Source of the DNA: Terriglobia bacterium
Lineage (GTDB): Bacteria > Acidobacteriota > Terriglobia > 20CM-2-55-15
DNA length: 64,000 nt
NCBI GenBank assembly: GCA_965218585.1
Contig: CBDCLE010000024.1
Coordinates: 96,001-160,000 of the forward strand
Direction: 5' to 3'
Positions 4,691 to 62,093 of this stretch are shown here, piece after piece; positions within the stretch are counted from its first letter, which is position 1, and the number at the start of each line of letters is the position of its first letter. Below the pieces are notes generated by a model. It was not told the origin of the DNA. It searched no databases and was given only the letters and a program-made list of their open reading frames with translations. The position numbers and the translations under genes were made by a program.

Positions 4691-4725
4691 TCAAGTCTCG
4701 AGAAACGACATTGTTCGGACGTTGA
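4691..4725. repeat. 35-bp variant of the dif/lox-like site, inverted relative to the 53-60 kb copies
   Basis: tcaagtctcgagaa-acgaca-ttgttcggacgttga; arms match the reverse complement of the 34-bp consensus. Confidence 0.7.
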
Positions 4726-9275: not shown

Positions 9276-11646
9276 CCTTCTCGGCGTCTGCCTGTGTCTG
9301 AGCCCGCCAGATCGCGTGCAAAGCCTGTTTCGCCTTCGCCTGGGCCGACTTCGGGAGCCCGTTCAGTACGTTCATGGTCTTGTGCATCCAGCAACGTTGG
9401 TGACGTGTCTCGGGATAGATTTCCTCCAGTGCGGCCCAGAATCCCATCGCACCGTCTCCGATGGCCAACTTCGGGATATTCATCCCACGCGACTTCAGCT
9501 TTAACAAGACCTCGCGCCAACTCTGTGTCGATTCCCGGACACCGTCTTCGATTGCCAGAAAACGTTTCTCTCCGCGTTGATTCGCGCCGATCACCACCAG
9601 TGCGCACAACTTGGTTTCTTCGGCCCGCAGTCCGCTGTAGATACCGTCGGCCCAGACATAGACCCAGCGATCGGCATCCAATCGCTCCTCGCATCCCCGG
9701 CGGTACTGCTCGGCCCAGACCTGTTTCAACCGCGATACCGTGCTCGCCGACAGGCCCTGCGCCTGGGGTCCGACAAGAACTTTTAGAGCGTCACCCATCT
9801 CGCCGCTGGAGACGCCTTTCAAATACAACCACGGCACCGCTGCTTCCAGCGATTTCGTTTTCCGAATGTAGGGAGGTACCAGGGCCGACCGGAACGTTAC
9901 CGGGTCGCCAGTCTTCGCTCGGACTTTCGGGATCTGGACCGTTACCGGCCCCAAACCGGTCTGCAGTTCACGTTCAGGCAGATAACCGTTGCGCACCACC
10001 CCGGCGTTGCCCGTCTCGGTTCTCCGATCGCCGTGGTGGGATAGCAGTTCCGCCAATTCGGTTTCCACCGCGCGTTGGATCAGTTGCTGAGCTCCAAGAG
10101 GTCGTTCCAATCGGTGTGTAAAAAGAGAAGGCGGTGTACGCTTTCGGTGAATTCGAAACCGTAAGCAATCCCGGCAGCAATCGGGAGAAAGGTACACCAC
10201 CCATGAAGAAGAAGAACATACCGGCATCAGTGGCGTCAACGAACGCGTATGAAGGTTTGGAGGACTGGGCGCGATCCCGGGTCCAAGTCTGGCTACAGGA
10301 GCTGCTCGAGGACGAAGTCACTCAATTTCTGGGTCGGGAAAAGTCGGAGCGGAGTCCGAATCGACGAGGATACCGGAACGGTCACGGGAAACCGCGACGC
10401 TTCGCAATGATGAACGGTACGATGGAGGTTCGACGACCTCGGGTTCGAAACACCGCCGAGCGGTTCGAGAGTCAGATCCTGCCGTATTTTCGACGGAAAT
10501 CGAAACAGCTGGGCGAGCTACTTCCCGATCTCTACCTCCACGGTCTGGCCACAGGGGACTTCGAGCAGGCCATGCGCGGACTGCTTGGCGCTGGCGCTCC
10601 GTTGTCGCGAGCATCGATCCAACGACTGAAATCGACCTGGCAGTTGGAGTATGACGAGTGGGTCCAGCAGGACCTGTCCGGCCTCGAGGTCGTGTACCAG
10701 TGGGCAGACGGCTTGTACGTGAAAGCGGGGATCGCGAAAGAGCGAGCGGCATTGCTGGTGATCATCGGAGCCTTGTCAGACGGGCGCAAAGTGGTGTTGG
10801 CCTGTGAGAGCGGGCAGCGGAAAAACAAGGAGTCCTGGAGCCGCATTCTGCGCAATCTCCAGAGACGGGGCCTGAAGCTGGGACGGCTGACTGTCGCGGA
10901 CGGTCACCTGGGCATCTGGTCCGCGCTGGCCGAGCAACAGCCCCAGGGCCAGGAACAACGCTGCTGGAACCACAAGTCGATCAACGTGGTCGATCATCTG
11001 CCGAAGACCGAGCAGCCCGCGGCCAGACAGCTGCTTCATGGGATGGCCTTCGCGAACTCCCGCGCGGCCTGCGAACGAAAGCGGGATCAGTTCGTCCGCC
11101 GATATGAGAAGAACTATCCCAAAGCGGGTGAGACGCTGTTGCGGGACTGGGACCGGATGATTACTTTCTATGAGTTCCCGAAACAACACTGGGTGCATCT
11201 GAGAACAACCAACATCGTCGAGTCGCCCTTCGACATGGTTCGCCTCCGCACCAACGCCGCTCGCCGATTCAAGCGTGTCGAGAATGCAACGGCAATGATC
11301 TGGAAGCTACTACGTGTCGCTGAGAAGGCTTGGCGACACTTAAAAGGATCCGAACTCTTACAAGAGGTCTATGATGGTCAGCAATTCGCTGACGGCATCA
11401 GAGTCGTGATGAAATCGAAGGCCGCCGCCTGATGACTTTTACACACCTTTTGTAATGACCTCAGCTCCAACTCGTAGTAGCTCTGTTATCGGATCCTCAA
11501 TCGTCTCTCGACCCTCCGGTCCATTCACGTTACTCTTGCTCATAGTGGCGTATCTCCCTTGGTTGCTTTGAAGTCTGGTAAACAACAAATCAACCAGATA
11601 CGCCGCTCTTCCTCAATCCCTTAAACACCAGATTCGGTTATAACTC
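9276..11646 (-). mobile_element. IS256 type B, 3'-deleted and interrupted by IS256 type A
   Basis: Reverse-complement identity to 19308-20693; left IR ends at 11646. Confidence 0.9.
10098..11462 (+). mobile_element. IS256 type A (1365 bp), transposase 10134-11432
   Basis: Terminal IRs gaggtc...gacctc, 8-bp TSD agctccaa, Mutator-type DDE motifs (ADG, QRCWNHK, RTTNIVES). Confidence 0.95.
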
Positions 11647-15553: not shown

Positions 15554-17145
15554 ATGATGAACCATGCAGACGGGTTGCTTAAGGTAGCTGAAGTTGCCGA
15601 CCGAGGTCATTACAAAAGGTGTGTAAAAGTCATCAGGCGGCGGCCTTCGATTTCATCACGACTCTGATGCCGTCAGCGAATTGCTGACCATCATAGACCT
15701 CTTGTAAGAGTTCGGATCCTTTTAAGTGTCGCCAAGCCTTCTCAGCGACACGTAGTAGCTTCCAGATCATTGCCGTTGCATTCTCGACACGCTTGAATCG
15801 GCGAGCGGCGTTGGTGCGGAGGCGAACCATGTCGAAGGGCGACTCGACGATGTTGGTCGTTCTCAGATGCACCCAGTGTTGTTTCGGGAACTCATAGAAA
15901 GTAATCATCCGGTCCCAGTCCCGCAACAGCGTCTCACCCGCTTTGGGATAGTTCTTCTCATATCGGCGGACGAACTGATCCCGCTTTCGTTCGCAGGCCG
16001 CGCGGGAGTTCGCGAAGGCCATTCCATGAAGCAGCTGTCTGGCCGCGGGCTGCTCGGTCTTCGGCAGATGATCGACCACGTTGATCGACTTGTGGTTCCA
16101 GCAGCGTTGTTCCTGGCCCTGGGGCTGTTGCTCGGCCAGCGCGGACCAGATGCCCAGGTGACCGTCCGCGACAGTCAGCCGTCCCAGCTTCAGGCCCCGT
16201 CTCTGGAGATTGCGCAGAATGCGGCTCCAGGACTCCTTGCTTTCCCGCTGCCCGCTCTCACAGGCCAACAGCACTTTGCGCCCGTCTGACAAGGCTCCGA
16301 TGATCACCAGCAATGCCGCTCGCTCTTTCGCGATCCCCGCTTTCACGTACAAGCCGTCTGCCCACTGGTACACGACCTCGAGGCCGGACAGGTCCTGCTG
16401 GACCCACTCGTCATACTCCAACTGCCAGGTCGATTTCAGTCGTTGGATCGATGCTCGCGACAACGGAGCGCCAGCGCCAAGCAGTCCGCGCATGGCCTGC
16501 TCGAAGTCCCCTGTGGCCAGACCGTGGAGGTAGAGATCGGGAAGTAGCTCGCCCAGCTGTTTCGATTTCCGTCGAAAATACGGCAGGATCTGACTCTCGA
16601 ACCGCTCGGCGGTGTTTCGAACCCGAGGTCGTCGAACCTCCATCGTACCGTTCATCATTGCGAAGCGTCGCGGTTTCCCGTGACCGTTCCGGTATCCTCG
16701 TCGATTCGGACTCCGCTCCGACTTTTCCCGACCCAGAAACTGCGTGACTTCGTCCTCGAGCAGCTCCTGTAGCCAGACTTGGACCCGGGATCGCGCCCAG
16801 TCCTCCAAACCTTCATACGCGTTCGTTGACGCCACTGATGCCGGTATGTTCTTCTTCTTCATGGGTGGTGTACCTTTCTCCCGATTGCTGCCGGGATTGC
16901 TTAGGGTTTCGGATTCACCGAAAGCGTACACCGCCTTCTCTTTTTACACACCGATTGGAACGACCTCTGCCGACCGACTCCGCGTTCCAAGGAGCTGGGT
17001 CTACAGCCACGCAGATGACCTAGGGGCTTACCGACTGGGCAAGTATCTGCGTTTCTCGTGGACGCGAGTTATCGAGCGGCTCGAACAGGCGGATTCGTTG
17101 GGTTCGCAAACCAACGACCGATTGCAAGGCATTGATAATGAGTGA
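15554..17145 (+). pseudogene. Excisionase-like HTH_17 protein split by IS256
   Basis: Removing the IS and one TSD gives MMNHADGLLKVAEVADRLRVPRSWVY...AYRLGKYLRF... Confidence 0.85.
15603..16967 (-). mobile_element. IS256 type A, transposase 15633-16931
   Basis: 1365 bp, 8-bp TSD tgccgacc. Confidence 0.95.
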
Positions 17146-18145: not shown

Positions 18146-18346
18146 ATGGCACGACCTCCTAAACCAGAGCATCTGAGACGAAGCAAGATGCTGCCAATCC
18201 GCTTCACAGTGGCCGAGTATCAGGCGCTGGAAAGTGGAGCGAAGCGGCTCGACGTTACCGTGTCGGATGTTTTGCGTGAAGGGGCTGTGCTGTTCATGAA
18301 GACGAAAAGCAAAGGCGGGTCACGAAAAAAGGAGAAAAGCTTATGA
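18146..18346 (+). CDS. Small RHH/MobC-like DNA-binding protein coupled to the integrase
   Basis: MARPPKP...IRFTVAEYQALE...TVSDVLR; ATGA overlap with the integrase start; TTGTCC-17-TACAAT promoter. Confidence 0.65.
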   Translation: MARPPKPEHLRRSKMLPIRFTVAEYQALESGAKRLDVTVSDVLREGAVLFMKTKSKGGSRKKEKSL

Positions 18347-19307
18347 CCCGTCAATCTGACCAAAAAGGTTGGGTGTCGGATGCCATCCGAACGAAGCGTG
18401 GCGTTGCTTACAAGATTCGCTGGCGCATTCGGGCGGCTGAAGGCAAGTGGAAGCATAAATCCGAGACACTTTACGGCTTGTCTGGAAAGAAGGAAGCCCG
18501 TAGGGAACTGCGAAAGCGCCTCGACGATTCATCGCCGGGGACGCCCCTTTCTGAGATCGCCCTGCGGGAATTCATGGATGAGCAATGGCGGCCTTACCTC
18601 GACAGAAAGAGAATGAAGGCCTCGACGATTCACGGCTACGAATGCATCCTCAACAAACACATCTTGCCCGTGCTTGGAGATCATCAACTTCAACAGATAT
18701 CGCCAGTGCACGTTGAGGAGTTCGTCCAATCAGTCGAGGCTGGGATGTCCCCACGGACCCTGAGAAACGTTCTGATGGTGTTATCTGGAATGTTCTCTCT
18801 AGCGGTAGATAAGGATCTGATCCAGAGGTCGCCGATTCGCGACAGTCACAAGCCTGACGTTCCAGAGTTTGAGAAGGAAGCTTGGACCGCCGAGCAGGTG
18901 AAGACGATCATCGACAACGTTCCTGAGAACTATCGAACCCTGTTCGTGACCGTTGCCTTTTCAGGTGTAAGGCTGGGTGAGTTACTGGCTCTACAGTGGC
19001 GTCACGTTAACTTTGAAGAACGGACGCTTCAGATTGATCAGAGCTTGTGGCACGGCCAGATTGTTCCACCAAAAACTCGGGAAAGTAAGAGGACGATTCC
19101 GTTTGGTGATGCTCTCGCGTCAAGTCTGAACGGACACCTAAGGAACTCTGCGTTCATCGGTCAACAGGACTTTGTTTTCTGCAAGGCAGACGGTTCAACA
19201 CTGAATCCCGATGTGCTGCGGAAGGACGTTCTGTATCCGACACTGGATCGGGCCGGTATTAGGCGTAGTTCTCGTGCTTCTGGATTTCATGCTTTCAGAC
19301 ACTCAGC
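18343..19307 (+). pseudogene. Tyrosine recombinase/phage-type integrase, C-terminus removed by IS256
   Basis: SAM-like domain, SGVRLGELLALQW, PKT, FHAFRHSA then the IS; catalytic Tyr region absent. Confidence 0.9.
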
Positions 19308-20693
19308 GAGTTATAACCGAATCTGGTGTTTAAGGGATTGAGGAAGAGCGGCGTATCTGGTTGATTTGTTGTTTACCAGACTTCAAAGCAACCAAGGGAG
19401 ATACGCCACTATGAGCAAGAGTAACGTGAATGGACCGGAGGGTCGAGAGACGATTGAGGATCCGATAACAGAGCTACTACGAGTTGGAGCTCAGCAACTG
19501 ATCCAACGCGCGGTGGAAACCGAATTGGCGGAACTGCTATCCCACCACGGCGATCGGAGAACCGAGACGGGCAACGCCGGGGTGGTGCGCAACGGTTATC
19601 TGCCTGAACGTGAACTGCAGACCGGTTTGGGGCCGGTAACGGTCCAGATCCCGAAAGTCCGAGCGAAGACTGGCGACCCGGTAACGTTCCGGTCGGCCCT
19701 GGTACCTCCCTACATTCGGAAAACGAAATCGCTGGAAGCAGCGGTGCCGTGGTTGTATTTGAAAGGCGTCTCCAGCGGCGAGATGGGTGACGCTCTAAAA
19801 GTTCTTGTCGGACCCCAGGCGCAGGGCCTGTCGGCGAGCACGGTATCGCGGTTGAAACAGGTCTGGGCCGAGCAGTACCGCCGGGGATGCGAGGAGCGAT
19901 TGGATGCCGATCGCTGGGTCTATGTCTGGGCCGACGGTATCTACAGCGGACTGCGGGCCGAAGAAACCAAGTTGTGCGCACTGGTGGTGATCGGCGCGAA
20001 TCAACGCGGAGAGAAACGTTTTCTGGCAATCGAAGACGGTGTCCGGGAATCGACACAGAGTTGGCGCGAGGTCTTGTTAAAGCTGAAGTCGCGTGGGATG
20101 AATATCCCGAAGTTGGCCATCGGAGACGGTGCGATGGGATTCTGGGCCGCACTGGAGGAAATCTATCCCGAGACACGTCACCAACGTTGCTGGATGCACA
20201 AGACCATGAACGTACTGAACGGGCTCCCGAAGTCGGCCCAGGCGAAGGCGAAACAGGCTTTGCACGCGATCTGGCGGGCTCAGACACAGGCAGACGCCGA
20301 GAAGGCATTCGATCTGTTCATTGAAACCTATGAGCCGAAGTATCCGAAAGCCACTCGCTGCCTCCAGAAAGACAAAGAAGAACTGCTGGCCTTCTTCAAC
20401 TTCCCGGCCAAGCACTGGCAGAGCATCCGAACGACCAATCCCATTGAGTCGACCTTTGCTACCATTCGCCACCGAACCAAGCGATCCAGGGGTTGCCTGA
20501 CGCGGGTTGGCATGCTGCACATGATGTTCAAACTGGGACAGTGCGCTCAGAAGAACTGGCGACGATTACGAGGATTCGATGATCTGCCCAAGGTGATTAC
20601 TGGAGTGAAATTCAACGATGGAATCGAAGTGACCCACGTCGATCAGGCCGCCGCTTGAGTCAATCGGCAAAACACCACTTTTGACAATAACTC
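19308..20693 (+). mobile_element. IS256 type B, transposase 19411-20658
   Basis: IRs gagttat...ataactc; WADG, GDG, QRCWMHK, RTTNPIES; no TSD. Confidence 0.95.
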
Positions 20694-24424: not shown

Positions 24425-24566
24425 CTGGCTGCTGACAACACCGTGTGCCGGGGATCTGAGACTTTGTTTGCGTCTAACCCCCTGCCCGAGTATTCTTTAC
24501 CGAGTTTTCATGATCCGTTTCGAGATCGTTAATAATCGTTAATAGATGATGGCATCGCGCACTCAG
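24425..24566 (+). promoter_or_regulatory. Degenerate site + kinase-unit promoter + degenerate kinase head
   Basis: Aligns with the reverse complement of 4583-4725: tgagactttgtttgcgtctaacc vs tgagaatttgatagcacctaact; TTGCGT-17-TATTCT; atggcatcgcgcactcag vs atggaatctgccactcag. Confidence 0.6.
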
Positions 24567-26849: not shown

Positions 26850-27257
26850 ATGTTGAAATGGACTATCAGTGCTTTCTTGGTCGTGTTCGCTCTGTTCCTC
26901 TCTGTAACTCCAGCTCTACCTCATCATTCGTTTGCAGCCATATTCGATAAGGAACAACCGTTCACCGTGACTGGGTTGCTCAATAGGGTGGAATGGAAAA
27001 ATCCACACATGTTCTTCCACGTGGACGTTACAGGAGAAGATGGACAGGTTGTGACGTGGGCATTTGAAGGTTATCCACCAACCATGATGATTCGGCAGGG
27101 ATGGTCACGCGATTCGGTGAACCCTGGGGACAGGGTGACGGTAACAGGATGGCGAGCACACAGGGGATCGCGACCCGTGGCTGGAGGAAATCGGATGACC
27201 TTACCTGACGGGCGCATCCTGCCCATAGGTGCCAGTTCCGAAGCAGAAAACCGCTAG
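26850..27257 (+). CDS. DUF6152-family secreted protein
   Basis: HHSFAAIFD, EWKNPH; its TAG stop is the CTAG target of IS1380. Confidence 0.8.
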   Translation: MLKWTISAFLVVFALFLSVTPALPHHSFAAIFDKEQPFTVTGLLNRVEWKNPHMFFHVDVTGEDGQVVTWAFEGYPPTMMIRQGWSRDSVNPGDRVTVTGWRAHRGSRPVAGGNRMTLPDGRILPIGASSEAENR

Positions 27258-28994
27258 CCCGCATGTTTCACCAGTCCGGCGATCAGGGGGATTTGGGCAG
27301 TAAGAATCGGATTCGGGAGGATCTGGGTTCGAATTGGGCATGTGTGGCGTGACTCGGCGGTGTCGACAAGCGGGAGTTGCTGCGTTTTCGGGTTCAGAAG
27401 AGGGTGACGAAACGCACTGAGACAAACCTCGGCGGAGCCGAAAAGAGCGAGTCGATTTTGGCGCAGGGGATCGGGTCGGTTCTCAGCAGCGCAGAGGAAG
27501 CGCCTGCAGGTTTCGATGGACGAGGGCAAAGACCTCGGCGTAGGGATAGGCTTCCGACATGGAGATCCAGATGTTGCGAACCGTCAGACGGACTTGAGCT
27601 CCGATCTTGAGGAGCTTCAAGCGGATCGTCTGGCACTGAGCGCGGGCCAGATCGGTATTCTTCAGTCCCAGACGGCGTAACGCGTGCAGGAGCATGTAGG
27701 CGGCCGAGGACAGATAGAGCCGGAGTTGATTGGCGCGCATGGTTGCCGCGCTGGTCCGGTCGGCGAATAGATCCAACTGCTGTTCCTTGATGCGATTTTC
27801 CATGTCGCCCCGCGCACAGTAAAAGTCTTCATAGAGGGCGCGGGCGTCCAGGCGTTCCGGCGACAGTGAGGTCACAACGAATCGAGGATTGGCGCCTTTC
27901 TCCAGGAACTCGGCCTTGCCGATGACGCGTCGGGTGCAGGTCCAGCTCTTCCGAGTGCGATACCGGAAATCGTTAAACACCCGCGCCGGTTTCCCGGTGT
28001 CGTTAAACTCGGCTTCGGCCTGACTCATCGATTCAGCGATCTCGCGCTTGAGCCGATCGTTCTTGGCCAGACCCACCACGTAATCGACCTGGTGGGCCTC
28101 GCACCAACTCAGCAATTCATCCCGGCAAAAGCCCGAGTCGGCCCGGATGATAATCGACACCTCCGGCCAGCTCTGCCGGATCTGGCCGATGATGCGGTTC
28201 AATTCCTCGACGGCGCCGTCCGCACCGTCGACATTGGAGCACCGCAACCGGGCGCATAGCAGATGCTCTCCCGAAAAGATGTAGAGCGGCAGATAACAGT
28301 AGTTGCCGTAGTAGCCGTGAAAGAACCGTCCTTCCTGATGGCCATGGATCGGATCATCGGTCGCATCCAGGTCCAGAACAATCTCCTCGGGCGCCGATCC
28401 GTGAGCCGCCACAAATGCATCCACCATCCAGCGGTCGATCTTGTCCGGGTCCATGGCAATCTTCTTGTACCGCTCCTTCCCATCGACTTGCTCCCCGGTC
28501 AGTTCCAACCGGTTCAGCGTACACTTGCCCGCCAACGCTTTTCCCCGGTCTCGGGCCTGCCGCCGCTTCTCCCCCAGTGGATCGGCCTTATCCACCGCCA
28601 CGGCCAGCATCGGATCGGTCCGCAGTTGGTCATGATCGTTCAGATCCTCGTAGCCCAGACAGAGTCCGTAGACGCGCTGCCCCAATAACTCGCTCACCGT
28701 GTGTTCGATCAACCTCGCGTCCCGGTAATCCCTGAAACACTCGGCCAGTCCGGCGATCAGACCCGTTCGCTTTTCCACTTCCCTCAACAGCAGAACCCCA
28801 GCGTCGGAGATGATCTTTCCGCCGTCAAAACGCGCCTTCACTTTTCGTTGAAGAAGTCCGTGAAATTCGAACGTCGTTTGGTTACACTCTGTTCTCATAA
28901 GGGCCGTCTCCGTTTGGCTTGTTAAACGTTTATTTCAAAACGCTTTATGCCAGACAGGGCGGCCTTTTCTGGTCCTATTGGTGAAATATGCGGG
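27258..28994 (-). mobile_element. IS1380-family element (1737 bp), transposase 27483-28898
   Basis: IRs cccgcat.tttcacc, CTAG duplication; DLDATDDP, RADSGF, RGDMENRIKE. Confidence 0.97.
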
Positions 28995-29132
28995 CTAGGT
29001 CGAATTTGATCGGGTTGGCAACCAACTTCTTGAGAACCCATAGTCGATACGATATCTTCGCCGCCTGAAGACCTCTGCGTCTCAGCGTTGAAAACCAACT
29101 GTCGGTTAGATATGGCGTGCGAGCGTAGGATG

Positions 29133-40200: not shown

Positions 40201-40237
40201 TTCACTAACTCCTCGGAATCGTCTGGAAATCTGCTAG

Positions 40238-41974
40238 CCCGCATATTTCACCGATAGGACCAGAAAAGGCCGCCCTGTCTGGCATAAAGCGTTTTGAAAT
40301 AAACGTTTAACAAGCCAAACGGAGACGGCCCTTATGAGAACAGAGTGTAACCAAACGACGTTCGAATTTCACGGACTTCTTCAACGAAAAGTGAAGGCGC
40401 GTTTTGACGGCGGAAAGATCACCTCCGACGCTGGGGTTCTGCTGTTGAGGGAAGTGGAAAAGCGAACGGGTCTGATCGCCGGACTGGCCGAGTGTTTCAG
40501 GGATTACCGGGACGCGAGGTTGATCGAACACACGGTGAGCGAGTTATTGGGGCAGCGCGTCTACGGACTCTGTCTGGGCTACGAGGATCTGAACGATCAT
40601 GACCAACTGCGGACCGATCCGATGCTGGCCGTGGCGGTGGATAAGGCCGATCCACTGGGGGAGAAGCGGCGGCAGGCCCGAGACCGGGGAAAAGCGTTGG
40701 CGGGCAAGTGTACGCTGAACCGGTTGGAACTGACCGGGGAGCAAGTCGATGGGAAGGAGCGGTACAAGAAGATGGCCATGGACCCGGACAAGATCGACCG
40801 CTGGATGGTGGATGCATTTGTGGCGGCTCACGGATCGGCGCCCGAGGAGATTGTTCTGGACCTGGATGCGACCGATGATCCGATCCATGGCCATCAGGAA
40901 GGACGGTTCTTTCACGGCTACTACGGCAACTACTGTTATCTGCCGCTCTACATCTTTTCGGGAGAGCATCTGCTATGCGCCCGGTTGCGGTGCTCCAATG
41001 TCGACGGTGCGGACGGCGCCGTCGAGGAATTGAACCGCATCATCGGCCAGATCCGGCAGAGCTGGCCGGAGGTGTCGATTATCATCCGGGCCGACTCGGG
41101 CTTTTGCCGGGATGAATTGCTGAGTTGGTGCGAGGCCCACCAGGTCGATTACGTGGTGGGTCTGGCCAAGAACGATCGGCTCAAGCGCGAGATCGCTGAA
41201 TCGATGAGTCAGGCCGAAGCCGAGTTTAACGACACCGGGAAACCGGCGCGGGTGTTTAACGATTTCCGGTATCGCACTCGGAAGAGCTGGACCTGCACCC
41301 GACGCGTCATCGGCAAGGCCGAGTTCCTGGAGAAAGGCGCCAATCCTCGATTCGTTGTGACCTCACTGTCGCCGGAACGCCTGGACGCCCGCGCCCTCTA
41401 TGAAGACTTTTACTGTGCGCGGGGCGACATGGAAAATCGCATCAAGGAACAGCAGTTGGATCTATTCGCCGACCGGACCAGCGCGGCAACCATGCGCGCC
41501 AATCAACTCCGGCTCTATCTGTCCTCGGCCGCCTACATGCTCCTGCACGCGTTACGCCGTCTGGGACTGAAGAATACCGATCTGGCCCGCGCTCAGTGCC
41601 AGACGATCCGCTTGAAGCTCCTCAAGATCGGAGCTCAAGTCCGTCTGACGGTTCGCAACATCTGGATCTCCATGTCGGAAGCCTATCCCTACGCCGAGGT
41701 CTTTGCCCTCGTCCATCGAAACCTGCAGGCGCTTCCTCTGCGCTGCTGAGAACCGACCCGATCCCCTGCGCCAAAATCGACTCGCTCTTTTCGGCTCCGC
41801 CGAGGTTTGTCTCAGTGCGTTTCGTCACCCTCTTCTGAACCCGAAAACGCAGCAACTCCCGCTTGTCGACACCGCCGAGTCACGCCACACATGCCCAATT
41901 CGAACCCAGATCCTCCCGAATCCGATTCTTACTGCCCAAATCCCCCTGATCGCCGGACTGGTGAAACATGCGGG
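40238..41974 (+). mobile_element. IS1380-family element, transposase 40334-41749
   Basis: 1737 bp, CTAG duplication. Confidence 0.97.
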
Positions 41975-42042
41975 CTAGCCCGATGTAGGCAGCCGATCCT
42001 TGTCTTTTCTCTGCGTCTCTGCGCCTCTGCGTTCTGTCCCTC

Positions 42043-44183: not shown

Positions 44184-44243
44184 CTGTAGGTGCGGTCTGT
44201 GACCGCACAAATTATTTTGTGCGCTCATAGAGCGCACCTACAG
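44184..44243. repeat. Inverted pair of GTAG-type REPs (REPIN/BIME-like)
   Basis: ctGTAGgtgcggtc-tgt-gaccgcacaa ... ttgtgcgctc-ata-gagcgcacCTACag. Confidence 0.8.
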
Positions 44244-50477: not shown

Positions 50478-50551
<74 letters not shown>

Positions 50552-52864: not shown

Positions 52865-52873
52865 GACTGCAAT

Positions 52874-52933
52874 ACCTCCTTTACCCAGGAGTGAGAGGAA
52901 CTCGTAGTAACGTACTTTGGTGCCGGATTCCAT
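52874..52933 (-). pseudogene. 5' remnant (head) of Ser/Thr kinase gene
   Basis: MESGTKVRYYEFLSLLGKGG; promoter TTGCCA-18-TAGACT at 52975-53004. Confidence 0.8.
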
Positions 52934-53037
52934 GTCTCTAATGAGTCGCCGTGAGGAACGGCAGAAATCGGCTAAGTCTATCGAGGTGGAAGCGTTGTTG
53001 GCAAGGGGACGGTCAACCGCCTCGTTTTGGCGAATTC

Positions 53038-53071
53038 TCAACGTCCGGGAAGACGATTTCTCAGGCCTTGA
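53038..53071. repeat. 34-bp dif/lox-like site
   Basis: tcaacgtccgggaa-gacgat-ttctcaggccttga; kinase tail KERVPTQ* at 53081-53104 on the minus strand. Confidence 0.85.
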
Positions 53072-53135
53072 CTCGGGGAATTATTGAGTCGGCACCCGTT
53101 CCTTAGAGCACGTGTCTAAGTACGCAGGCCCATAG

Positions 53136-54603
53136 TACTACTGTGTTACAAAAGGCCTATTTTATGTTAGCATCCGGTCATGAGCGCCAAATCGAAGGCG
53201 CCAGGCACTCAGGAAAAACGTTTTGCGGCCTATTTGGAACGCCTGGCGTCGGCCGCAGGACACGCCGATCGTCATGAACCGTTGAAGTCGTACTGCACCG
53301 GGTTGTTGCTGCCGATCAAACGTAAGAGTGTGGAGCCGATGGCTGCACGATTGGCTCCGGATAATGTACGCCGAATGCACCAGTCGCTACATCATCTGGT
53401 CGCGGATGCGCCCTGGGACGATGCGGCTCTGTTGGCAGAAGTTCGACAGTACGCGCTGGGGGCGATGGAAGCCAACGGTCCGATTGAAGCCTGGATTGTC
53501 GACGACACCGGATTCGTGAAAAAGGGGACCCACTCGGTGGGTGTGGCCCGGCAATACTGTGGACAGGTCGGCAAACCTGAGAACTGCCGGGTGGCGGTGA
53601 GCCTGTCGGTGGCGACAGCGAAATCCAGCTTGCCGGTGGCATGGCGACTCTACCTCCCCGAGACCTGGGCGAAGGATCCGGAACGTCGAAGCAAAGCCGC
53701 TATTCCCGAAGACGTTCGATTTCAAACTAAACCTCAAATTGCTTTGGAACAAATCCGGCAGGCCGTCGATGACGGCATTGCTCCGACACCGGTTCTGGGC
53801 GATACGGCCTACGGCAACAACTACAAGTTCCGGCACGGCATCACCGAACTCGGACTTAGCTACGTCCTAGGGGTGCAAGGCACCACGACCGTGTGGAAAC
53901 CGGGCCAGGGTCCCTTGCCGCCGAAATCCTTGACCGGCCGCGGACGGACACCGACCCGCATGCAGCGCAACAAGAAACATCAACCGGTTTCGGTCAAGCA
54001 ACTGGCCCTCTCGTTGTCTCCCCAGCGTTGGAAGAACGTCTCCTGGCGCGAAGGCACCTCCGAGACCCTGCGTTCCCGTTTCGCCGCAGTTCGCATTCGT
54101 CCCGCTCATCTGGATCACGAGCGCCACTCGCCGCATCCGAAAGAGTGGTTGTTGGTCGAGTGGCCCAAGACCGCATCCGAACCGATCCGGTACTGGCTCT
54201 CCACTCTTGGGGCCCATACCTCGCTTTCCGATCTGGCCGGTCAGGCCAAACAGCGCTGGATCATCGAACGCGACTATCAGGAACTCAAGCAGGAACTCGG
54301 TCTGGGACACTACGAAGGTCGCGGCTGGCGTGGATTTCACCATCATGGCACCTTATGTATTGCCTCTTATGGGTTCCTGGTCGCCGAGCGGAGCCGTTTT
54401 TCCCCCTCTGCATTTGTCGAGCATGTTGGACTATCCGTCCCCAAACTCCCCAAACACTTCAAACCCCGCGGAACCCCGGATCCGGCCCGAACGACATAAC
54501 CCCTGCTCGATTGCCACGCTTCGCATTCGCATCGCCCGCTTCCTGATTCAGCAGCTTCCTCGTTGTCCGTTCTGTGGACCGCTTCGTTTGTAACACAGTA
54601 GTA
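53136..54603 (+). mobile_element. IS701-family element, transposase 53180-54499
   Basis: Perfect IR tactactgtgttacaaa, ATAG duplication; IVDDTGFVKKG.HSVGV.RQY, RWIIERDYQELKQELG. Confidence 0.95.
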
Positions 54604-54708
54604 ATAGACGATGCATAGAAAGGTGAGCGACATCAGTTATTCTGAGCTGATTGGCTTTACACACAGCTAACCTTAAGATTACTTTTGGCTCGACAAGGAG
54701 GGAAAGAC

Positions 54709-55133
54709 ATGGCGATTACGTTGCCGGAATCTGTGAAGAAAATCCTACAAGAGCAGATCCACGGGCACATTATTACGTTCAATCCGAAGGGAACGCTACA
54801 GGTCACGTTGGTCTGGCTGGATGTCGATGGGAATGATGTGGTTTTCAATACAGCCGAGGGACGGATCAAACCCAGGAATCTCCGTAACACCCGAGCATAG
54901 TTATCAGCGCCCAGGACCCGAACAACCCCCGCTCTTACATGGTGTTCTATGGCAAGGCAACTGTCAGTGAGGCCGGCGCCGACGAACACATCGACAAGCT
55001 CGCGAAGAAGTTCATGGGTGTTGACAAGTACCCGTTTCGCAAGCCAGACGAGACGCGACTGATCGTGCGAACTGCAGTCGACCGGATAGGCGGCCACGAC
55101 GACACGATGACGCCCTGGCAGAGTAGTCACTGA
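54709..55133 (+). pseudogene. PPOX-class (F420-dependent-type) oxidoreductase, frameshifted near 54888
   Basis: VWLDVDG..VVFNTAEGR.K.RNL then IVISAQDP..HIDKLAKKF in another frame; AAGGAGG SD. Confidence 0.8.
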
Positions 55134-55181
55134 GCCACCCCAAGCAGTCTAGACGCCGGCGTTTTAGGCGGAAATGAAACG

Positions 55182-55215
55182 TCAAGGTCCGAGAAGATGA
55201 TTTCTCAGGACTTGA
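55182..55215. repeat. 34-bp dif/lox-like site
   Basis: tcaaggtccgagaa-gatgat-ttctcaggacttga; kinase tail KERVPVP* at 55225-55248 on the minus strand. Confidence 0.85.
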
Positions 55216-55284
55216 CCTCGGAAATCACGGCACGGGCACCCGTTCCTTCGGTGCATCGTTTTGTTAGGCACGTGATGTCTCTTG

Positions 55285-55428
55285 GAGATGAGCGAAGAGA
55301 ACGCTGAAAAGGCGATTTCGCAGTTCAATGGAAAGGAACTGGATGGCCGGGAACTAACAGTGAACGAAGCCCGACCTCAAACCAATCGCAACAGTGGCGG
55401 AGGTGGCCGAGGCGGAGGACGCTACTAG
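55285..55428 (+). pseudogene. 3' half of RRM RNA-binding protein gene
   Basis: EMSEENAEKAISQFNGKELDGRELTVNEARP...GGGGRGGGRY*; RNP2/RNP1 half absent. Confidence 0.8.
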
Positions 55429-55595
55429 GGGTTCCGCCTAGCGAAAGAGGCAGGGGGGCTGCTTGTTCTACGTGCACCCGTCCCTGCCGCTCACGGATCG
55501 AACGACGAAAGCGATAAAACTCGCTTCCAAACTATCTAAAGTCTCTAACGAAGCGTCATTCGCCTGCTAAACCCGATTGACGTTCTGATGTTTCC

Positions 55596-55811
55596 ATGCG
55601 CCTTACGCGATCTTCGAAATCGATCGACAAACGATGGTATCTGAGCGTGGTCTGCCGGAAGTGCCGATCCGCAATATCATTCGGACTGGATCAGTCCGAA
55701 GGTAAAGGCATCTTACCGCCGATCGGGAAACTTGTGCTCACATGCGGTGAATGCGGCCATCATGCCGCCTATGACTCGACGAAGGTCTCCCGTAGCCAGA
55801 AGATGCTTTGA
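55596..55811 (+). CDS. Small CxxC..CxxC putative Zn-binding protein
   Basis: VVCRKC...LTCGECGH. Confidence 0.55.
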   Translation: MRLTRSSKSIDKRWYLSVVCRKCRSAISFGLDQSEGKGILPPIGKLVLTCGECGHHAAYDSTKVSRSQKML

Positions 55812-55872
55812 CGTTGGCTACTCTATTTCTCCCGCTGCCCGACTTGCTTGGCAAGGCAGGATCGTTGGGAGG

Positions 55873-55906
55873 TCAACGTCCGACAAGATGATTTATCAGG
55901 ACCTGA
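55873..55906. repeat. 34-bp dif/lox-like site
   Basis: tcaacgtccgacaa-gatgat-ttatcaggacctga. Confidence 0.85.
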
Positions 55907-55985
55907 GAGTCATTTTTAATGCAGAAGCTGATCCACTTGCCTTTGCAAACTATAAAACGAGGCAGAGAAATGCGCGACGATGTAC

Positions 55986-57704
55986 CTATTGACACACCTC
56001 TTCACTACTTCTCGGAAACCACTCGCCATACGTATCGGCATTGGCACAAGTGATCACGCTGTTGTCTGAGTAGACGATCTTGCCATCCATTATCGTGAGT
56101 ACGGATTTCACATCGCGTAAGTTTCCCAGGTCTTCCATCCCAAAAACATCGTCGGAGAGGACAGCCACATCTGCCAGTTTGCCCTCTTCGATAGACCCCA
56201 GATTTTCCTCATCAAACGAGAACCATGCGTTGTTTATCGTCATCCATCGAATCGCTTCTTCGACGGTCAGAACGTCTTCAAATACTACGGTACCGGTATC
56301 ATCCAGGCCCGTCGTGACGTGATATATCCCGAGCCAAGGGTTAATAATGGCCACGTTGCCACCATCTGATCCCAGGCCAGAATGTACATCGTGTTCGAAC
56401 AAAGCCTTGAAAGGGGGTGGGGCGATGGGCCCTTCGGATGAATACGAGAAGTAAGCCGCGACAGCTCCACCACCGAGAGCTTCGAGCCGGTCCATACTTG
56501 TCGTGGTCAATAGAGGGACATGAGCCAGGTGCCAACGCAGGGCCGTCAGATCTTCGCTTGACGATTCAAAGGCCGTTAAATAACCATCGCTTTCCAACGG
56601 CGACAACGTGTGCTGAAACACAGTTGCGCCGAGACTTGCCGCGAGATTGATCTTAGGGATGTAAGTTTCTTCGTTGACAACGTCCTCTACTGCTGTCGGG
56701 AATCTAACACCCCCACCGTCGATAAATTCGCCGATCGCGTAATTGCGGTACATTGCGTCTCTAGACGTATCGTTGAGGGTGGTGATTTCATTTTCGAGCG
56801 CTTCCAGGCTTGCGCCGCCATATAAACCTCGAACACGCATAACGGCGCCGTTGTCGGCAATCCGCTGAACTTCTGTGCCTCCGTCCGACAGTGACATGGT
56901 CATACCGAGGCTCGCCGCCCAGGCCTGAACACCGAGAACTCCGTCGACTCTATCCTCTTCGGTTTGCTCAGAGCGTAACTGTTGAGCGGCGATGCTGTTA
57001 AAGAAGGCACGGTTGTTCGTGCCCGAGCCAATGTCGACCACACCATCATCGGAAACAGGCAATCCATGAGCGCGGAAGTAATCAATGCCCGTTGAATTGG
57101 TCTGAGTGCCGCCAGTGAATGTGGATTCAAGATAAATCGGATGGTCGAATTGATTCAGCGTCTCAAAGCTTGGTAATGCACCCTCGACAAATTGCCCCGG
57201 GGTAATGGCACCGATTACGGTGACAAAATTGTTCTGTGTACCGACAGTTCCCGCCTCGGGTAGAGGAATATTCTCTACTGTGATCTGTTTCTGCAGGAGG
57301 ACTACCGCCTCATCCCATGATCTTGCGGAATCCATGGCATATACCATGTGCCCCGGCTTGAGGCCGCGTCCGATAACGTGGCTGTGGTTGTCAATGAGCC
57401 CAGGTATTGCCGTACGTCCTGAAAGATCGATTCTGCAATCGCCGTCGACACCAAGTGTCTCTTCATCGCCGTTACTCAAGCCTGCGACGAGATTGTTCTG
57501 TAACCGAACAGACGAGACGACGCTATTGTCGGCATCCATGGTGTGAATCACGCCGTTATAAAGCACTTTTCCGGAGGCTTCGCTGCAAACATCTGCCCAT
57601 CGAACGCCTGCGCCGACGTCCGGGTCGTTACAGGCGCTTGCAGCGAATGAAATAACTACGGCAAAAGCAAACTTGATTGATATTCGGTTGTTTTTCTTGT
57701 TCAC
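55986..57704 (-). CDS. Amidohydrolase_3-type lipoprotein
   Basis: Lipobox ASAC, IPGLIDNHSH, GSD, GSIEEGKLAD.AVL. Confidence 0.88.
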   Translation of the reverse strand: MNKKNNRISIKFAFAVVISFAASACNDPDVGAGVRWADVCSEASGKVLYNGVIHTMDADNSVVSSVRLQNNLVAGLSNGDEETLGVDGDCRIDLSGRTAIPGLIDNHSHVIGRGLKPGHMVYAMDSARSWDEAVVLLQKQITVENIPLPEAGTVGTQNNFVTVIGAITPGQFVEGALPSFETLNQFDHPIYLESTFTGGTQTNSTGIDYFRAHGLPVSDDGVVDIGSGTNNRAFFNSIAAQQLRSEQTEEDRVDGVLGVQAWAASLGMTMSLSDGGTEVQRIADNGAVMRVRGLYGGASLEALENEITTLNDTSRDAMYRNYAIGEFIDGGGVRFPTAVEDVVNEETYIPKINLAASLGATVFQHTLSPLESDGYLTAFESSSEDLTALRWHLAHVPLLTTTSMDRLEALGGGAVAAYFSYSSEGPIAPPPFKALFEHDVHSGLGSDGGNVAIINPWLGIYHVTTGLDDTGTVVFEDVLTVEEAIRWMTINNAWFSFDEENLGSIEEGKLADVAVLSDDVFGMEDLGNLRDVKSVLTIMDGKIVYSDNSVITCANADTYGEWFPRSSEEVCQ

Positions 57705-57729
57705 AATCTCCCCCTATGGTGCTTGCGTT

Positions 57730-57848
57730 TAGGAGGCCCAAGATCTCGTAGTGGCCGAGTTTGGTGCCAGATTCCATCGTTATGGTGTGTCGCTGAAGAA
57801 ACCGTGAAAAACTCGGTAAAGGATACTAAGGGAGGGGTTTGTAAGCAA
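57730..57848 (-). promoter_or_regulatory. Kinase-unit promoter (TTGCTT-17-TATCCT) plus kinase head 57730-57777
   Basis: Head translates MESGTKLGHYEILGLL; promoter matches 4642-4661. Confidence 0.75.
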
Positions 57849-57863
57849 TCAGAAGGTCAACGC

Positions 57864-59228
57864 GAGGTCATTACAAAAGGTGTGTAAAAGTCATCAGGCG
57901 GCGGCCTTCGATTTCATCACGACTCTGATGCCGTCAGCGAATTGCTGACCATCATAGACCTCTTGTAAGAGTTCGGATCCTTTTAAGTGTCGCCAAGCCT
58001 TCTCAGCGACACGTAGTAGCTTCCAGATCATTGCCGTTGCATTCTCGACACGCTTGAATCGGCGAGCGGCGTTGGTGCGGAGGCGAACCATGTCGAAAGG
58101 CGATTCGACGATGTTGGTTGTTCTCAGATGCACCCAGTGTTGTTTCGGGAACTCATAGAAAGTAATCATCCGGTCCCAGTCCCGCAACAGCGTCTCACCC
58201 GCTTTGGGATAGTTCTTCTCATATCGGCGGACGAACTGATCCCGCTTTCGTTCGCAGGCCGCGCGGGAGTTCGCGAAGGCCATCCCATGAAGCAGCTGTC
58301 TGGCCGCGGGCTGCTCGGTCTTCGGCAGATGATCGACCACGTTGATCGACTTGTGGTTCCAGCAGCGTTGTTCCTGGCCCTGGGGCTGTTGCTCGGCCAG
58401 CGCGGACCAGATGCCCAGGTGACCGTCCGCGACAGTCAGCCGTCCCAGCTTCAGGCCCCGTCTCTGGAGATTGCGCAGAATGCGGCTCCAGGACTCCTTG
58501 CTTTCCCGCTGCCCGCTCTCACAGGCCAACACCACTTTGCGCCCGTCTGACAAGGCTCCGATGATCACCAGCAATGCCGCTCGCTCTTTCGCGATCCCCG
58601 CTTTCACGTACAAGCCGTCTGCCCACTGGTACACGACCTCGAGGCCGGACAGGTCCTGCTGGACCCACTCGTCATACTCCAACTGCCAGGTCGATTTCAG
58701 TCGTTGGATCGATGCTCGCGACAACGGAGCGCCAGCGCCAAGCAGTCCGCGCATGGCCTGCTCGAAGTCCCCTGTGGCCAGACCGTGGAGGTAGAGATCG
58801 GGAAGTAGCTCGCCCAGCTGTTTCGATTTCCGTCGAAAATACGGCAGGATCTGACTCTCGAACCGCTCGGCGGTGTTTCGAACCCGAGGTCGTCGAACCT
58901 CCATCGTACCGTTCATCATTGCGAAGCGTCGCGGCTTCCCGTGACCGTTCCGGTATCCTCGTCGATTCGGACTCCGCTCCAACTTTTCCCGACCCAGAAA
59001 TTGAGTGACTTCGTCCTCGAGCAGCTCCTGTAGCCAGACTTGGACCCGGGATCGCGCCCAGTCCTCCAAACCTTCATACGCGTTCGTTGACGCCACTGAT
59101 GCCGGTATGTTCTTCTTCTTCATGGGTGGTGTACCTTTCTCCCGATTGCTGCCGGGATTGCTTACGGTTTCGAATTCACCGAAAGCGTACACCGCCTTCT
59201 CTTTTTACACACCGATTGGAACGACCTC
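57864..59228 (-). mobile_element. IS256 type A, transposase 57894-59192
   Basis: 1365 bp, 8-bp TSD gtcaacgc. Confidence 0.95.
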
Positions 59229-59254
59229 GTCAACGCTCGAATTTAGGCCAATTC

Positions 59255-59288
59255 TCAACGTCCGACAAGATGATTTAACAGGACTTGA
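59255..59288. repeat. 34-bp dif/lox-like site
   Basis: tcaacgtccgacaa-gatgat-ttaacaggacttga; degenerate tail LKELVRLP* at 59298-59324 on the minus strand. Confidence 0.85.
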
Positions 59289-59357
59289 CCGGGAAGCTTA
59301 AGGTAGCCGCACCAGTTCCTTAAGTCGCGTTTGGTACGCGGACACCCGGGCGCGATA

Positions 59358-60179
59358 ATGATGGAAGTGCTGGACCTATCGGAAACGCTCGCTCAGGAGC
59401 TGGAACGCCCGCGGAAGATTTCCGCTCAGGTTGCTCGCCATCTGGTGGCAAATTACGGCATCGCCGACGATGAGACCGGCCCATTTCTCGTCCAGACGCT
59501 GCCTACGCTCGAGGAGGATGAAATCGACCTGATCCTGTCGCCCTTGTTCACGCCGAAGCTCGCCGACCAAGCCGTGTTCGCCGGTCGGCTCGGCAGGCAG
59601 TCGATCCCGTCGGATGAGCTGGTTCGCCTGGTTGTTCAGGTGGTTGCCCGCCCCACAGACGCCAGCCTTGCCGGGATGGACGACCAAAACCATCGGGTCA
59701 GGCTTGGCGAGGTGACCGTGGAGCGTTACGTGTATCGCCTTCGGCTGGAAGCAACGATTCCAGAGGCAACATTTGAGCTCATCCAGCGGCATCCGTCCGG
59801 CGACTACCCACTTTTTCAGGCCGTCGCGCGCCGCGCAACCTGGGAGGGGGACGGCCGGTCCGGAATCCTCAGAGGTTACCTGATGGCAACGGCAGGTATC
59901 GAGGCTTGGGGCGCGGCCGAGGTGCGCTCCCTGCTCGATCTGGTGGACCGCTACAAGCCCATCGACATCGCCGATCTGGTAGCGAAGATTCCCAGATGGC
60001 AGGAAGGATTGCGAAGTGATCTTAGCTTGGCTTCGGGACGAAAGCCGTTTTTCAGCGAAGGGATCGAACACTCTCACGGTGGAGAGCGCGACCATCGTTC
60101 ACCAGAGGGCGCTCTGATCGAGGCGAAGAGGCGGGAACTGAGTTTTCTCGAACGCCTCGAGTTACTTCTAGTGCACTGA
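59358..60179 (+). CDS. Hypothetical protein
   Basis: ORF of about 273 aa filling the interval between two sites. Confidence 0.65.
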   Translation: MMEVLDLSETLAQELERPRKISAQVARHLVANYGIADDETGPFLVQTLPTLEEDEIDLILSPLFTPKLADQAVFAGRLGRQSIPSDELVRLVVQVVARPTDASLAGMDDQNHRVRLGEVTVERYVYRLRLEATIPEATFELIQRHPSGDYPLFQAVARRATWEGDGRSGILRGYLMATAGIEAWGAAEVRSLLDLVDRYKPIDIADLVAKIPRWQEGLRSDLSLASGRKPFFSEGIEHSHGGERDHRSPEGALIEAKRRELSFLERLELLLVH

Positions 60180-60209
60180 TCCGGTAACAGGACTTATCGT
60201 TCCGCGGCG

Positions 60210-60243
60210 TCGAGGTCCGCGAAGATGATTTATCGGGACCTGA
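60210..60243. repeat. 34-bp dif/lox-like site
   Basis: tcgaggtccgcgaa-gatgat-ttatcgggacctga. Confidence 0.85.
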
Positions 60244-60266
60244 GAATCGTTTTCATGGTCATCTAG

Positions 60267-62003
60267 CCCGCATGTTTCACCAGTCCGGCGATCAGGGGGA
60301 TTTGGGCAGTAAGAATCGGATTCGGGAGGATCTGGGTTCGAATTGGGCATGTGTGGCGTGACTCGGCGGTGTCGACAAGCGGGAGTTGCTGCGTTTTCGG
60401 GTTCAGAAGAGGGTGACGAAACGCACTGAGACAAACCTCGGCGGAGCCGAAAAGAGCGAGTCGATTTTGGCGCAGGGGATCGGGTCGGTTCTCAGCAGCG
60501 CAGAGGAAGCGCCTGCAGGTTTCGATGGACGAGGGCAAAGACCTCGGCGTAGGGATAGGCTTCCGACATGGAGATCCAGATGTTGCGAACCGTCAGACGG
60601 ACTTGAGCTCCGATCTTGAGGAGCTTCAAGCGGATCGTCTGGCACTGAGCGCGGGCCAGATCGGTATTCTTCAGTCCCAGACGGCGTAACGCGTGCAGGA
60701 GCATGTAGGCGGCCGAGGACAGATAGAGCCGGAGTTGATTGGCGCGCATGGTTGCCGCGCTGGTCCGGTCGGCGAATAGATCCAACTGCTGTTCCTTGAT
60801 GCGATTTTCCATGTCGCCCCGCGCACAGTAAAAGTCTTCATAGAGGGCGCGGGCGTCCAGGCGTTCCGGCGACAGTGAGGTCACAACGAATCGAGGATTG
60901 GCGCCTTTCTCCAGGAACTCGGCCTTGCCGATGACGCGTCGGGTGCAGGTCCAGCTCTTCCGAGTGCGATACCGGAAATCGTTAAACACCCGCGCCGGTT
61001 TCCCGGTGTCGTTAAACTCGGCTTCGGCCTGACTCATCGATTCAGCGATCTCGCGCTTGAGCCGATCGTTCTTGGCCAGACCCACCACGTAATCGACCTG
61101 GTGGGCCTCGCACCAACTCAGCAATTCATCCCGGCAAAAGCCCGAGTCGGCCCGGATGATAATCGACACCTCCGGCCAGCTCTGCCGGATCTGGCCGATG
61201 ATGCGGTTCAATTCCTCGACGGCGCCGTCCGCACCGTCGACATTGGAGCACCGCAACCGGGCGCATAGCAGATGCTCTCCCGAAAAGATGTAGAGCGGCA
61301 GATAACAGTAGTTGCCGTAGTAGCCGTGAAAGAACCGTCCTTCCTGATGGCCATGGATCGGATCATCGGTCGCATCCAGGTCCAGAACAATCTCCTCGGG
61401 CGCCGATCCGTGAGCCGCCACAAATGCATCCACCATCCAGCGGTCGATCTTGTCCGGGTCCATGGCAATCTTCTTGTACCGCTCCTTCCCATCGACTTGC
61501 TCCCCGGTCAGTTCCAACCGGTTCAGCGTACACTTGCCCGCCAACGCTTTTCCCCGGTCTCGGGCCTGCCGCCGCTTCTCCCCCAGTGGATCGGCCTTAT
61601 CCACCGCCACGGCCAGCATCGGATCGGTCCGCAGTTGGTCATGATCGTTCAGATCCTCGTAGCCCAGACAGAGTCCGTAGACGCGCTGCCCCAATAACTC
61701 GCTCACCGTGTGTTCGATCAACCTCGCGTCCCGGTAATCCCTGAAACACTCGGCCAGTCCGGCGATCAGACCCGTTCGCTTTTCCACTTCCCTCAACAGC
61801 AGAACCCCAGCGTCGGAGGTGATCTTTCCGCCGTCAAAACGCGCCTTCACTTTTCGTTGAAGAAGTCCGTGAAATTCGAACGTCGTTTGGTTACACTCTG
61901 TTCTCATAAGGGCCGTCTCCGTTTGGCTTGTTAAACGTTTATTTCAAAACGCTTTATGCCAGACAGGGCGGCCTTTTCTGGTCCTATCGGTGAAATATGC
62001 GGG
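60267..62003 (-). mobile_element. IS1380-family element, transposase 60492-61907
   Basis: 1737 bp, CTAG duplication that is the stop codon of the kinase tail. Confidence 0.97.
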
Positions 62004-62093
62004 CTAGGGCACCGGCACCCGTTCTTTGAGTTCCTCGAACCAATTGAGGACGATGTTGATTTGTGGGCGCGTCACCTCGGCCGTCTGAGCACT
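62004..62093 (-). pseudogene. 3' remnant (tail) of Ser/Thr kinase-PD40 gene
   Basis: SAQTAEVTRPQINIVLNWFEELKERVPVP*. Confidence 0.85.

Follow-up and report, generated by a model that had tools for sequence, protein, structure and literature searches.

A dispersed dyad repeat at cassette borders in Terriglobia genomes, probably a recombination site of an Xer-like enzyme family

We analysed a window of 64,000 nucleotides from a Terriglobia bacterium (assembly GCA_965218585.1, contig CBDCLE010000024.1, positions 96,001 to 160,000, forward strand), in which a first-pass annotation had described five copies of a short dyad repeat as core sites of a tyrosine recombinase. Sites of this type are seams: they divide accessory DNA into gene cassettes that recur in new combinations among relatives. 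As judged from sequence, the five repeats are probably recombination sites of an uncharacterised, single Xer-like enzyme of the P0001 family, named here after a protein of a related genome, that would act in trans. The genome under study (G000; 4.55 Mb, 95.5% complete; the window is part of its contig C24) was compared with other genomes, designated G001, G002, and so forth.

Sites, spacer classes and recurring cassettes

All five window copies lie on the forward strand (sites 1 to 5, at 53038–53071, 55182–55215, 55873–55906, 59255–59288, and 60210–60243, respectively) and have the 14-6-14 architecture previously attributed to them, with the spacer GACGAT at site 1 and GATGAT at the other four. 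The dyad symmetry of sites often reaches approximately 4 bases further out on each side. A lone right-arm remnant (60185–60195, forward strand), the 11 bases of which recur unchanged in site 4 as part of its right arm, and an extension common to sites 3 and 5 are present as had been described. The extension is real, but the difference on which two subtypes had been proposed is one of DNA beyond the right arm.

A matrix built from the five copies gave 92 genome matches above 16 bits, compared to 0 and 1 in two shuffles. After iteration of the matrix, 84 sites of G000 scored above 18 bits and none did in two shuffles (maximum 10.4 bits), thus the repeat is not a product of chance. The asymmetric 6-base spacer is conserved genome-wide (GATGAT in 47 of the 84 copies) and is enclosed by imperfect inverted arms, which bears out the first-pass annotation in its classification of the repeat as a tyrosine-recombinase-type site. 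With two or fewer mismatches, the site pattern was found in six of 41 genomes, with 47 matches in G000, 117 in G001, 82 in G003, 7 in G002, one each in G007 and G017, and none in G004. A looser pattern matched 10 of 35 genomes of the family, and the named relatives are Terriglobia. The exact pattern had no match in genome-contig and viral-contig collections; the looser pattern had six matches there and, in metagenomes, 19 at short loci in which no recombinase open reading frame (ORF) was seen.

For further analyses, we pooled 392 sites, comprising all 84 sites of G000, 161, 105, and 12 sites from the fetched parts of G001, G003, and G002, respectively, a further eight contributed by five additional genomes, and 22 on short contigs. 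Two classes were distinguished, A (n = 328, spacer ending in GAT in 308) and B (n = 64, spacer ending in CGT in 59), with counts that are partly definitional because the classes were defined on the spacer. Independent of this definition, loose motif matches show that sequence typical of the region upstream of Ser/Thr kinase genes of one family comes directly after 60 of the 64 B sites, and the last codons of such a kinase gene after 169 of the 328 A sites. B sites are located approximately 190 bases before kinase start codons and A sites approximately 10 bases after kinase stop codons, and one complete unit (C2:547323–550156) consists of B, the upstream region, a Ser/Thr kinase-PD40 gene, and an inverted A. 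Neighbouring sites less than 6 kb apart (n = 250 pairs) follow a strict orientation rule, with A–A pairs being direct (n = 171) or rarely inverted (n = 3), A–B pairs being inverted (n = 75) and never direct (n = 0), and a single B–B pair. Eighteen of the 29 close back-to-back A–B pairs are spaced by 24 or 25 bases and five have a common 114-base linker. The median site spacing is 2.0 kb, cassettes contain one to few genes, and by inspection of loci the cargo is mostly directed away from B. This second spacer class and the A/B orientation rule had been missed in the earlier reading of the window, whose five copies all belong to class A and none to class B.

The regular placement of B before kinase starts and of A after kinase stops would suit a role in the transcription of these kinase genes, as a terminator or as the operator of a transcription factor, without any part in recombination. 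We regard this as very improbable. The point at which loci cease to be homologous lies within the site, sites are retained next to genes of both orientations, none of the terminator or promoter calls coincides with a site, and seven of eight folds were no better than shuffles (z −1.0 to +0.8; −2.85 for the eighth). The sites are neither terminator-like nor stable hairpins, which answers the first-pass annotation where it had named a mere terminator as an alternative. Inverted B and A sites around the kinase-PD40 gene on C2, together with interiors elsewhere that are swapped for unrelated genes and resemble internally deleted elements, would likewise suit a non-autonomous cut-and-paste transposon that carried the kinase gene and had A and B as its terminal inverted repeats. 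There is very little to recommend this explanation: A/B pairs have no target duplication outside them, class A is more numerous than class B (328 compared to 64) and occurs in direct arrays, either end has a dyad of its own with the spacer of its class, and the sites enclose no transposase family besides inserted insertion sequences (ISs). In addition, adjacent sites are as unlike as random ones; 131 neighbouring pairs differ by 3.05 compared to 3.09 for random pairs, and four are identical compared to 4.0. Because neighbouring copies are no more alike than random ones, we also rejected duplication of the repeat on insertion, be it of the kind seen as target duplication at terminal inverted repeats or CRISPR-like.

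Flanks were considered shared if at least 250 bases were at least 85% identical. Among 358 sites, 35 pairs have only the left flank in common, 33 only the right flank, and seven both; ten of the right-flank pairs are copies of one IS110. A cassette of 1.29 kb is 99.5% identical at two loci of G001 that have different neighbours on both sides. G001 further contains array segments that are 99.8–100% identical and reordered within the one genome (C6:24–44 kb, C11:4–8 kb and 55–58 kb).

A candidate recombinase and its relation to Xer and integron systems

P0001 is a 316-aa Xer-like tyrosine recombinase of G001 (C5:52192–53139). It is enclosed by the only B–B pair of the dataset, whose sites are back to back, and lies 92 bases from one B site, divergent from a kinase start. 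It scores under the cut-offs for XerC, XerD, XerS, and IntI (61 bits compared to an integron-integrase cut-off of 265), and the closest solved structures by sequence are XerA (E 5e-20) and XerD (E 1e-17), with Cre not among the ten matches listed. The catalytic residues R164, K191, H261, R264, H287, and Y296 (the RKHRH-Y set) are present and are invariant in 19 homologues. The homologues P0002 to P0005 are 82% and 71–73% identical to it, and a 62% homologue in G007 is divergent from a kinase gene without a site. The family is large, with 7703 of 8000 scored candidates passing E 1e-60, and occurs in 28 of 251 genomes of the class; its members are annotated solely as XerD-like or integrase. Excerpts of one survey list simple tyrosine-recombinase subgroups and never name Acidobacteria (PMC8138268), and excerpts of a second study count 27 XerD-like integrase genes in Solibacter and describe no sites (PMC3469429). 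Most P0001 homologues have a ribosome-binding sequence in the loop of a short inverted repeat just upstream of the start codon, possibly a translation brake.

The family was linked to the repeat by a motif trained on 101 flanks (200 bases) of 52 homologue loci, from which G001 was left out to avoid circularity and in which only strands reading away from the gene were searched. Its log-likelihood was 287 compared to 90 on shuffled flanks, and it was found at 36 of the 52 loci, at 19 of them on both sides. The motif fits the repeat in only one of 21 registers (+5.5 bits; −16 to −48 for the others), with the spacer in place and on one strand. Its spacers are predominantly CGT upstream of the gene (n = 15; GAY, n = 8; other, n = 4) and GAY downstream (n = 22; CGT, n = 2; other, n = 4), a split with a Fisher p of 6e-5 among loci that, as kin, are not independent. 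Scores above 0 bits were obtained for 302 of the 328 A sites (mean 6.4; −11.3 on the opposite strand) and 51 of the 64 B sites; window sites 1 to 5 scored 16.6, 8.6, 5.4, 4.6, and 4.9 bits, respectively, under this independent motif. The columns of motif and sites are correlated (0.49 for A, 0.42 for B), and none of 5000 permutations was as high. On plasmid pACIX905 of Granulicella tundricola (NC_015060.1), an 8.9-kb stretch around a 59% homologue of P0001 has four motif matches that exceed 11 bits and are located at gene borders, none of them directly upstream of the homologue gene.

Several observations weigh against assigning the repeat to this family. P0001 is positioned between two B sites rather than between B and A, and could itself be cargo. 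By tblastn or profile, the family was found neither in G000 nor in G003 (two contigs, at least 105 sites), and G002 has a copy only in broken form. The motif is loose: four of its top 100 matches in G000 are repeat sites, as are 22 of the 2042 matches of at least 8 bits (0.25 expected by chance), shuffled flanks still yielded 34 high-posterior matches, and coding DNA beside P0001 has equally strong ones. Matches to a matrix derived from the repeat are enriched only 2.3-fold in the vicinity of homologue genes (17 in 17.2 kb) over more distant DNA (43 in 101.9 kb). Most spacers of the family begin with G-S-S, not with GAT or TGT, and the first three bases of the B spacer vary (TGT 27, GGT 17, GAT 11 of 64). 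A family-consensus pattern that matched none of 133 genomes of family f4 was overly strict and says nothing either way. The earlier suggestion of a single Xer-like recombinase encoded elsewhere gains a candidate in P0001, but one not found in G000, and the tyrosine recombinase gene looked for beside a site of G000 is not there, as none of the 12 PF00589 matches adjoins one. G000 also had no site at the six viewed of eight resolvase loci and no PF07508 match. All five genomes contain Y1 transposases.

XerC and XerD are the sole short tyrosine recombinases that are intact in G000, and the left arm of the repeat matches the XerC-side arm of the dif candidate (C10:37522) at seven of 11 positions. 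The host proteins might accordingly recombine the sites as at pdif, with XerC bound to the left arm. However, the right arm matches the XerD-side arm of dif at six of 11 positions at best and contains no dif-like 11-base XerD arm, and most relatives possess XerC/XerD yet have hardly any sites (six of 41 genomes with a match), so that we consider this explanation improbable. Comparison with the predicted chromosomal dif, as recommended at the outset, established that the repeat is not dif, which scores −28 and −23 bits under the flank motif that fits the repeat. Excerpts of two reports on Acinetobacter (PMC9455709, PMC12907356) describe pdif modules as having short dyad sites with a 6-base centre, occurrence in several contexts, diverse cargo, and IS insertion at fixed places beside or in sites, all of which apply here as well. 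In contrast to the pdif sites of these excerpts, the repeat has arms of 14–18 rather than 11 bases and lacks an XerD arm, and the evidence points to one dedicated recombinase family in place of the host XerC/XerD. Chromosomes contain 84 to more than 160 copies, mostly as direct repeats of one class, and the cargo lies between the start of a kinase gene and its tail.

Integrons also have direct arrays of one- to few-gene cassettes, and in G001 an A site and a B site (L104:2861 and C12:570271) each carry a different integrase-plus-IS91-transposase element where the spacer meets the right arm; the ends of these elements resemble putative attC core motifs. Nevertheless, it is exceedingly improbable that the sites represent an atypical form of attC that IntI, or the IntI-like protein of IS91-type elements, would recombine in the state of single-stranded hairpins. 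The attC core triplets AAC and GTT are both present in only 17 of the 392 sites, no stable fold was obtained, and the 12–23 pair is not compensated (of 187 distinct A cores, 55 have it paired). Within the 20 kb fetched, no site accompanies the integron integrase loci of G001, G002, and G003, and G000 has neither an integron integrase (none among 12 matches) nor an IS91 transposase. G001, G002, and G003 each have a separate integron-integrase-like locus with small downstream genes, of which only the G001 protein was confirmed as IntI. The integrase-plus-IS91 elements were rejected as the engine of the system; they are often near G001 sites, but the transposase is lacking in G000 and has eight matches in the site-poor G004.

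The present arrays share with integron arrays and integrase-less attC clusters the co-orientation of small cassettes and the occurrence of arrays without an enzyme in cis. As in integrons, a tyrosine recombinase gene is divergent from site and upstream region in G001, and IS1111-type elements target the sites (for attC, see excerpts of PMC11187229). Different from attC, the 34–44-base site has no core triplets or stable hairpin, and cassettes often carry their own upstream region. The system works like pdif modules and, as arrays, like integrase-less integrons, and it lacks defining features of each.

Position of exchange and insertion sequences at the sites

In a set of 223 A sites, linkage between variant bases is strong inside either arm (z up to 22) but nearly absent from one arm to the other (z ≤ 3), a break in linkage that agrees with the prediction of a crossover in the spacer. 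Pairs of sites with one flank in common tell against this prediction; each site was used once, and we excluded broken-armed sites as well as pairs alike on both sides. Right-flank-sharing pairs (n = 17) have 15 mismatches of 34 at positions 23–24 (15.6 expected if unlinked, 1.2 if linked), left-flank-sharing pairs (n = 15) have nine of 30 at positions 11–12 (13.4 and 1.3, respectively), and a mixture fit put a weight of 0.01 on the interval containing the spacer. As inner-arm bases show no linkage to the flank on their side, the data do not support a fixed crossover in the spacer, and the variant bases do not place exchange in the 6-base spacer as a plain core-site reaction would predict. The outer part of the right arm, in contrast, remains associated with the right flank (2 mismatches of 51 at positions 29–31 in right-flank pairs, 10.2 expected if unlinked), which restricts exchange to the central part of the site. 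The linkage break and the inner-arm mismatches would be compatible if short conversion tracts formed around a Holliday junction.

IS elements insert at defined positions of the site. In the fetched DNA, the regions of which were picked for their sites, 19 of 22 IS110 left ends lie at site position 24|25 or at its mirror 10|11. IS110 elements with sub-terminal inverted repeats (six copies in G001, 12 in G003, and C10:2623 in G000) occur as variants in the right arm or, mirrored, in the left arm, and the variants at 24|25 and 10|11 would represent a natural pair of retargeted guide RNAs. The 7-base and 3-base extensions of the element fit the IS1111 rule, and IS1111-type elements are known to target attC and REP (excerpts of PMC11187229). 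An IS30 family element is inserted at the dyad centre, where it splits the spacer, in at least five A sites of G000 (C13:7122–8373, C11:73047, C14:31929, C18:26707, and C24:212833).

These insertions raise the question of whether the sites are relics of a P0001-type system that are now shuffled by site-targeting IS110 copies, through composite movement or recombination between copies followed by precise excision, or by RecA-type recombination over the 40-base repeat and the kinase tail. The insertion point 24|25 coincides with the loss of linkage to the right flank (from 24 to 29), the IS110 element is present in G000, G001, and G003, which lack or mostly lack P0001, and several right-flank pairs differ well into the kinase tail. 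However, related IS copies are also present in G004, a genome with one site, and exchange only at 10|11 or 24|25 would keep positions 12 and 23 linked, which is not the case. Only one of the 392 sites looks like a two-left-arm hybrid, and uniform homologous exchange would unlink positions 29–31, which stay linked. Moreover, this explanation accounts neither for the conservation of both arms and both spacer classes nor for the A/B orientation rule, and on balance we deem it unlikely.

Recombination by an enzyme of the P0001 family, which we favour, would proceed in trans because the family was not found in G000. The enzyme would bind both arms as dimers, and like spacers would recombine (A with A), such that DNA between direct A sites would be excised and re-inserted as a circle. 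Unlike spacers would not complete exchange, and inverted A/B pairs would therefore be stable. Two exchanges would be needed to relocate a module between inverted A and B sites, a scheme that has been proposed for pdif modules; the recombinase gene itself would be such a module, and the 24-, 25-, and 114-base A–B linkers would be empty versions of its slot. Exchange would be centred on the site, with short conversion tracts extending into the inner arms. The founding unit is B, upstream region, Ser/Thr kinase gene, and A. Arrays without a resident enzyme would be frozen, like integrase-less attC clusters, and would collect IS elements. Cre/loxP with heterospecific spacers similarly combines one enzyme, a 34-base dyad, a direction-setting asymmetric spacer, and two incompatible spacer classes; here, in contrast, the spacer has 6 bases, the relatives of the enzyme are XerA and XerD, and exchange points do not map to the spacer.

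The array in the window and a possible cassette platform

Parts of the kinase unit are retained throughout the window array. A cargo gene with a SnoaL_2 domain match sits behind a remnant of the kinase upstream region and start (52872–52934, reverse strand; 73% over 63 bases compared to the B–kinase–A unit on C2), from which a 25-base junction (53013–53037, forward strand), of a type also seen at other A sites, leads to site 1. Remnants of the kinase 3'-tail follow site 1 (53072–53104, reading KERVPTQ-stop), site 2 (55216–55252, KERVPVP-stop; 83% over 71 bases including the site), and site 4 (59289–59325; 79% over 71 bases including the site), all on the reverse strand. Sites 1 and 2 are separated by an IS701 family transposase gene, a passenger insertion (53180–54499, forward strand), and a PPOX-like cargo gene split into two frames (54709–55133, forward strand), which has a weak PNPOx_N match (E 0.005) and a 75% DNA homologue in G003. 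A 71-aa cargo ORF with two CxxC motifs (55596–55811, forward strand; weak Zn-ribbon match, E 0.003) precedes site 3. The cassette between sites 3 and 4 contains an amidohydrolase gene (55986–57704, reverse strand; Amidohydro_3), of which G003 has a 93–96% identical counterpart at a distance of approximately 115 bases to an A site, whereas C14 encodes a paralogue of 86% identity. This gene also sits behind a reused kinase upstream region (57741–57835, reverse strand; 86% over 95 bases compared to the same reference unit), which, given its position, would act as a promoter. An IS256 element (57864–59228, reverse strand) has entered the short junction before site 4 and is flanked by an 8-base target duplication (57856–57863 and 59229–59236). 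Sites 4 and 5 enclose a gene for a 282-aa cargo protein without a Pfam match (59331–60179, forward strand), and an IS1380 element (60263–62007, reverse strand) begins approximately 20 bases behind site 5. Downstream, the array runs on to an A site at C24:160949 and ends at an inverted B site (C24:169447). Outside the five-site array, the window contains a decayed B-type site with kinase upstream region (4523–4725, reverse strand; 75% over 204 bases compared to the reference unit) and a remnant of a B-side upstream region (24457–24508, forward strand; 83% over 52 bases).

A 27–28-base inverted repeat is present at window positions 4614–4640 and 44184–44243 and also follows the B sites at C2:111716, C4:47087, and C11:78235. 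A tRNA gene (50478–50551) lies approximately 2.5 kb before site 1 and is followed by an IS5-type element; the array may belong to a tRNA-linked island. A phage-type tyrosine integrase gene (18343–19341) is truncated by an IS, and a 73-aa fragment beside a tRNA gene (C24:175389–175610) may be the missing integrase C-terminus, in which case the two would bracket approximately 61 kb including the array. IS1380 is present in four near-identical copies (7533–9149, 27254–28998, 40234–41978, and the copy behind site 5) and IS256 in three (10097–11462, 15603–16968, and the copy before site 4). These near-identical copies, some of which are nested, show a very recent IS expansion.

Literature searches of partial coverage turned up no description of this system. 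It is conceivable, though doubtful at present, that it represents a third bacterial gene-cassette platform beside integrons and pdif modules, in which a mobile Xer-like recombinase, a module between CGT- and GAY-class sites, visits Terriglobia and reshuffles hundreds of double-stranded sites. In this genus, the sites would be set into the ends of a kinase gene, the upstream region of which would be reused to express cargo, and exchange would extend beyond the 6-base spacer. With P0001 and the repeat, a probable enzyme–site pair is now named for a large cassette system of the Acidobacteriota, and natural, mutually exclusive spacer pairs would be useful for cassette-exchange engineering.

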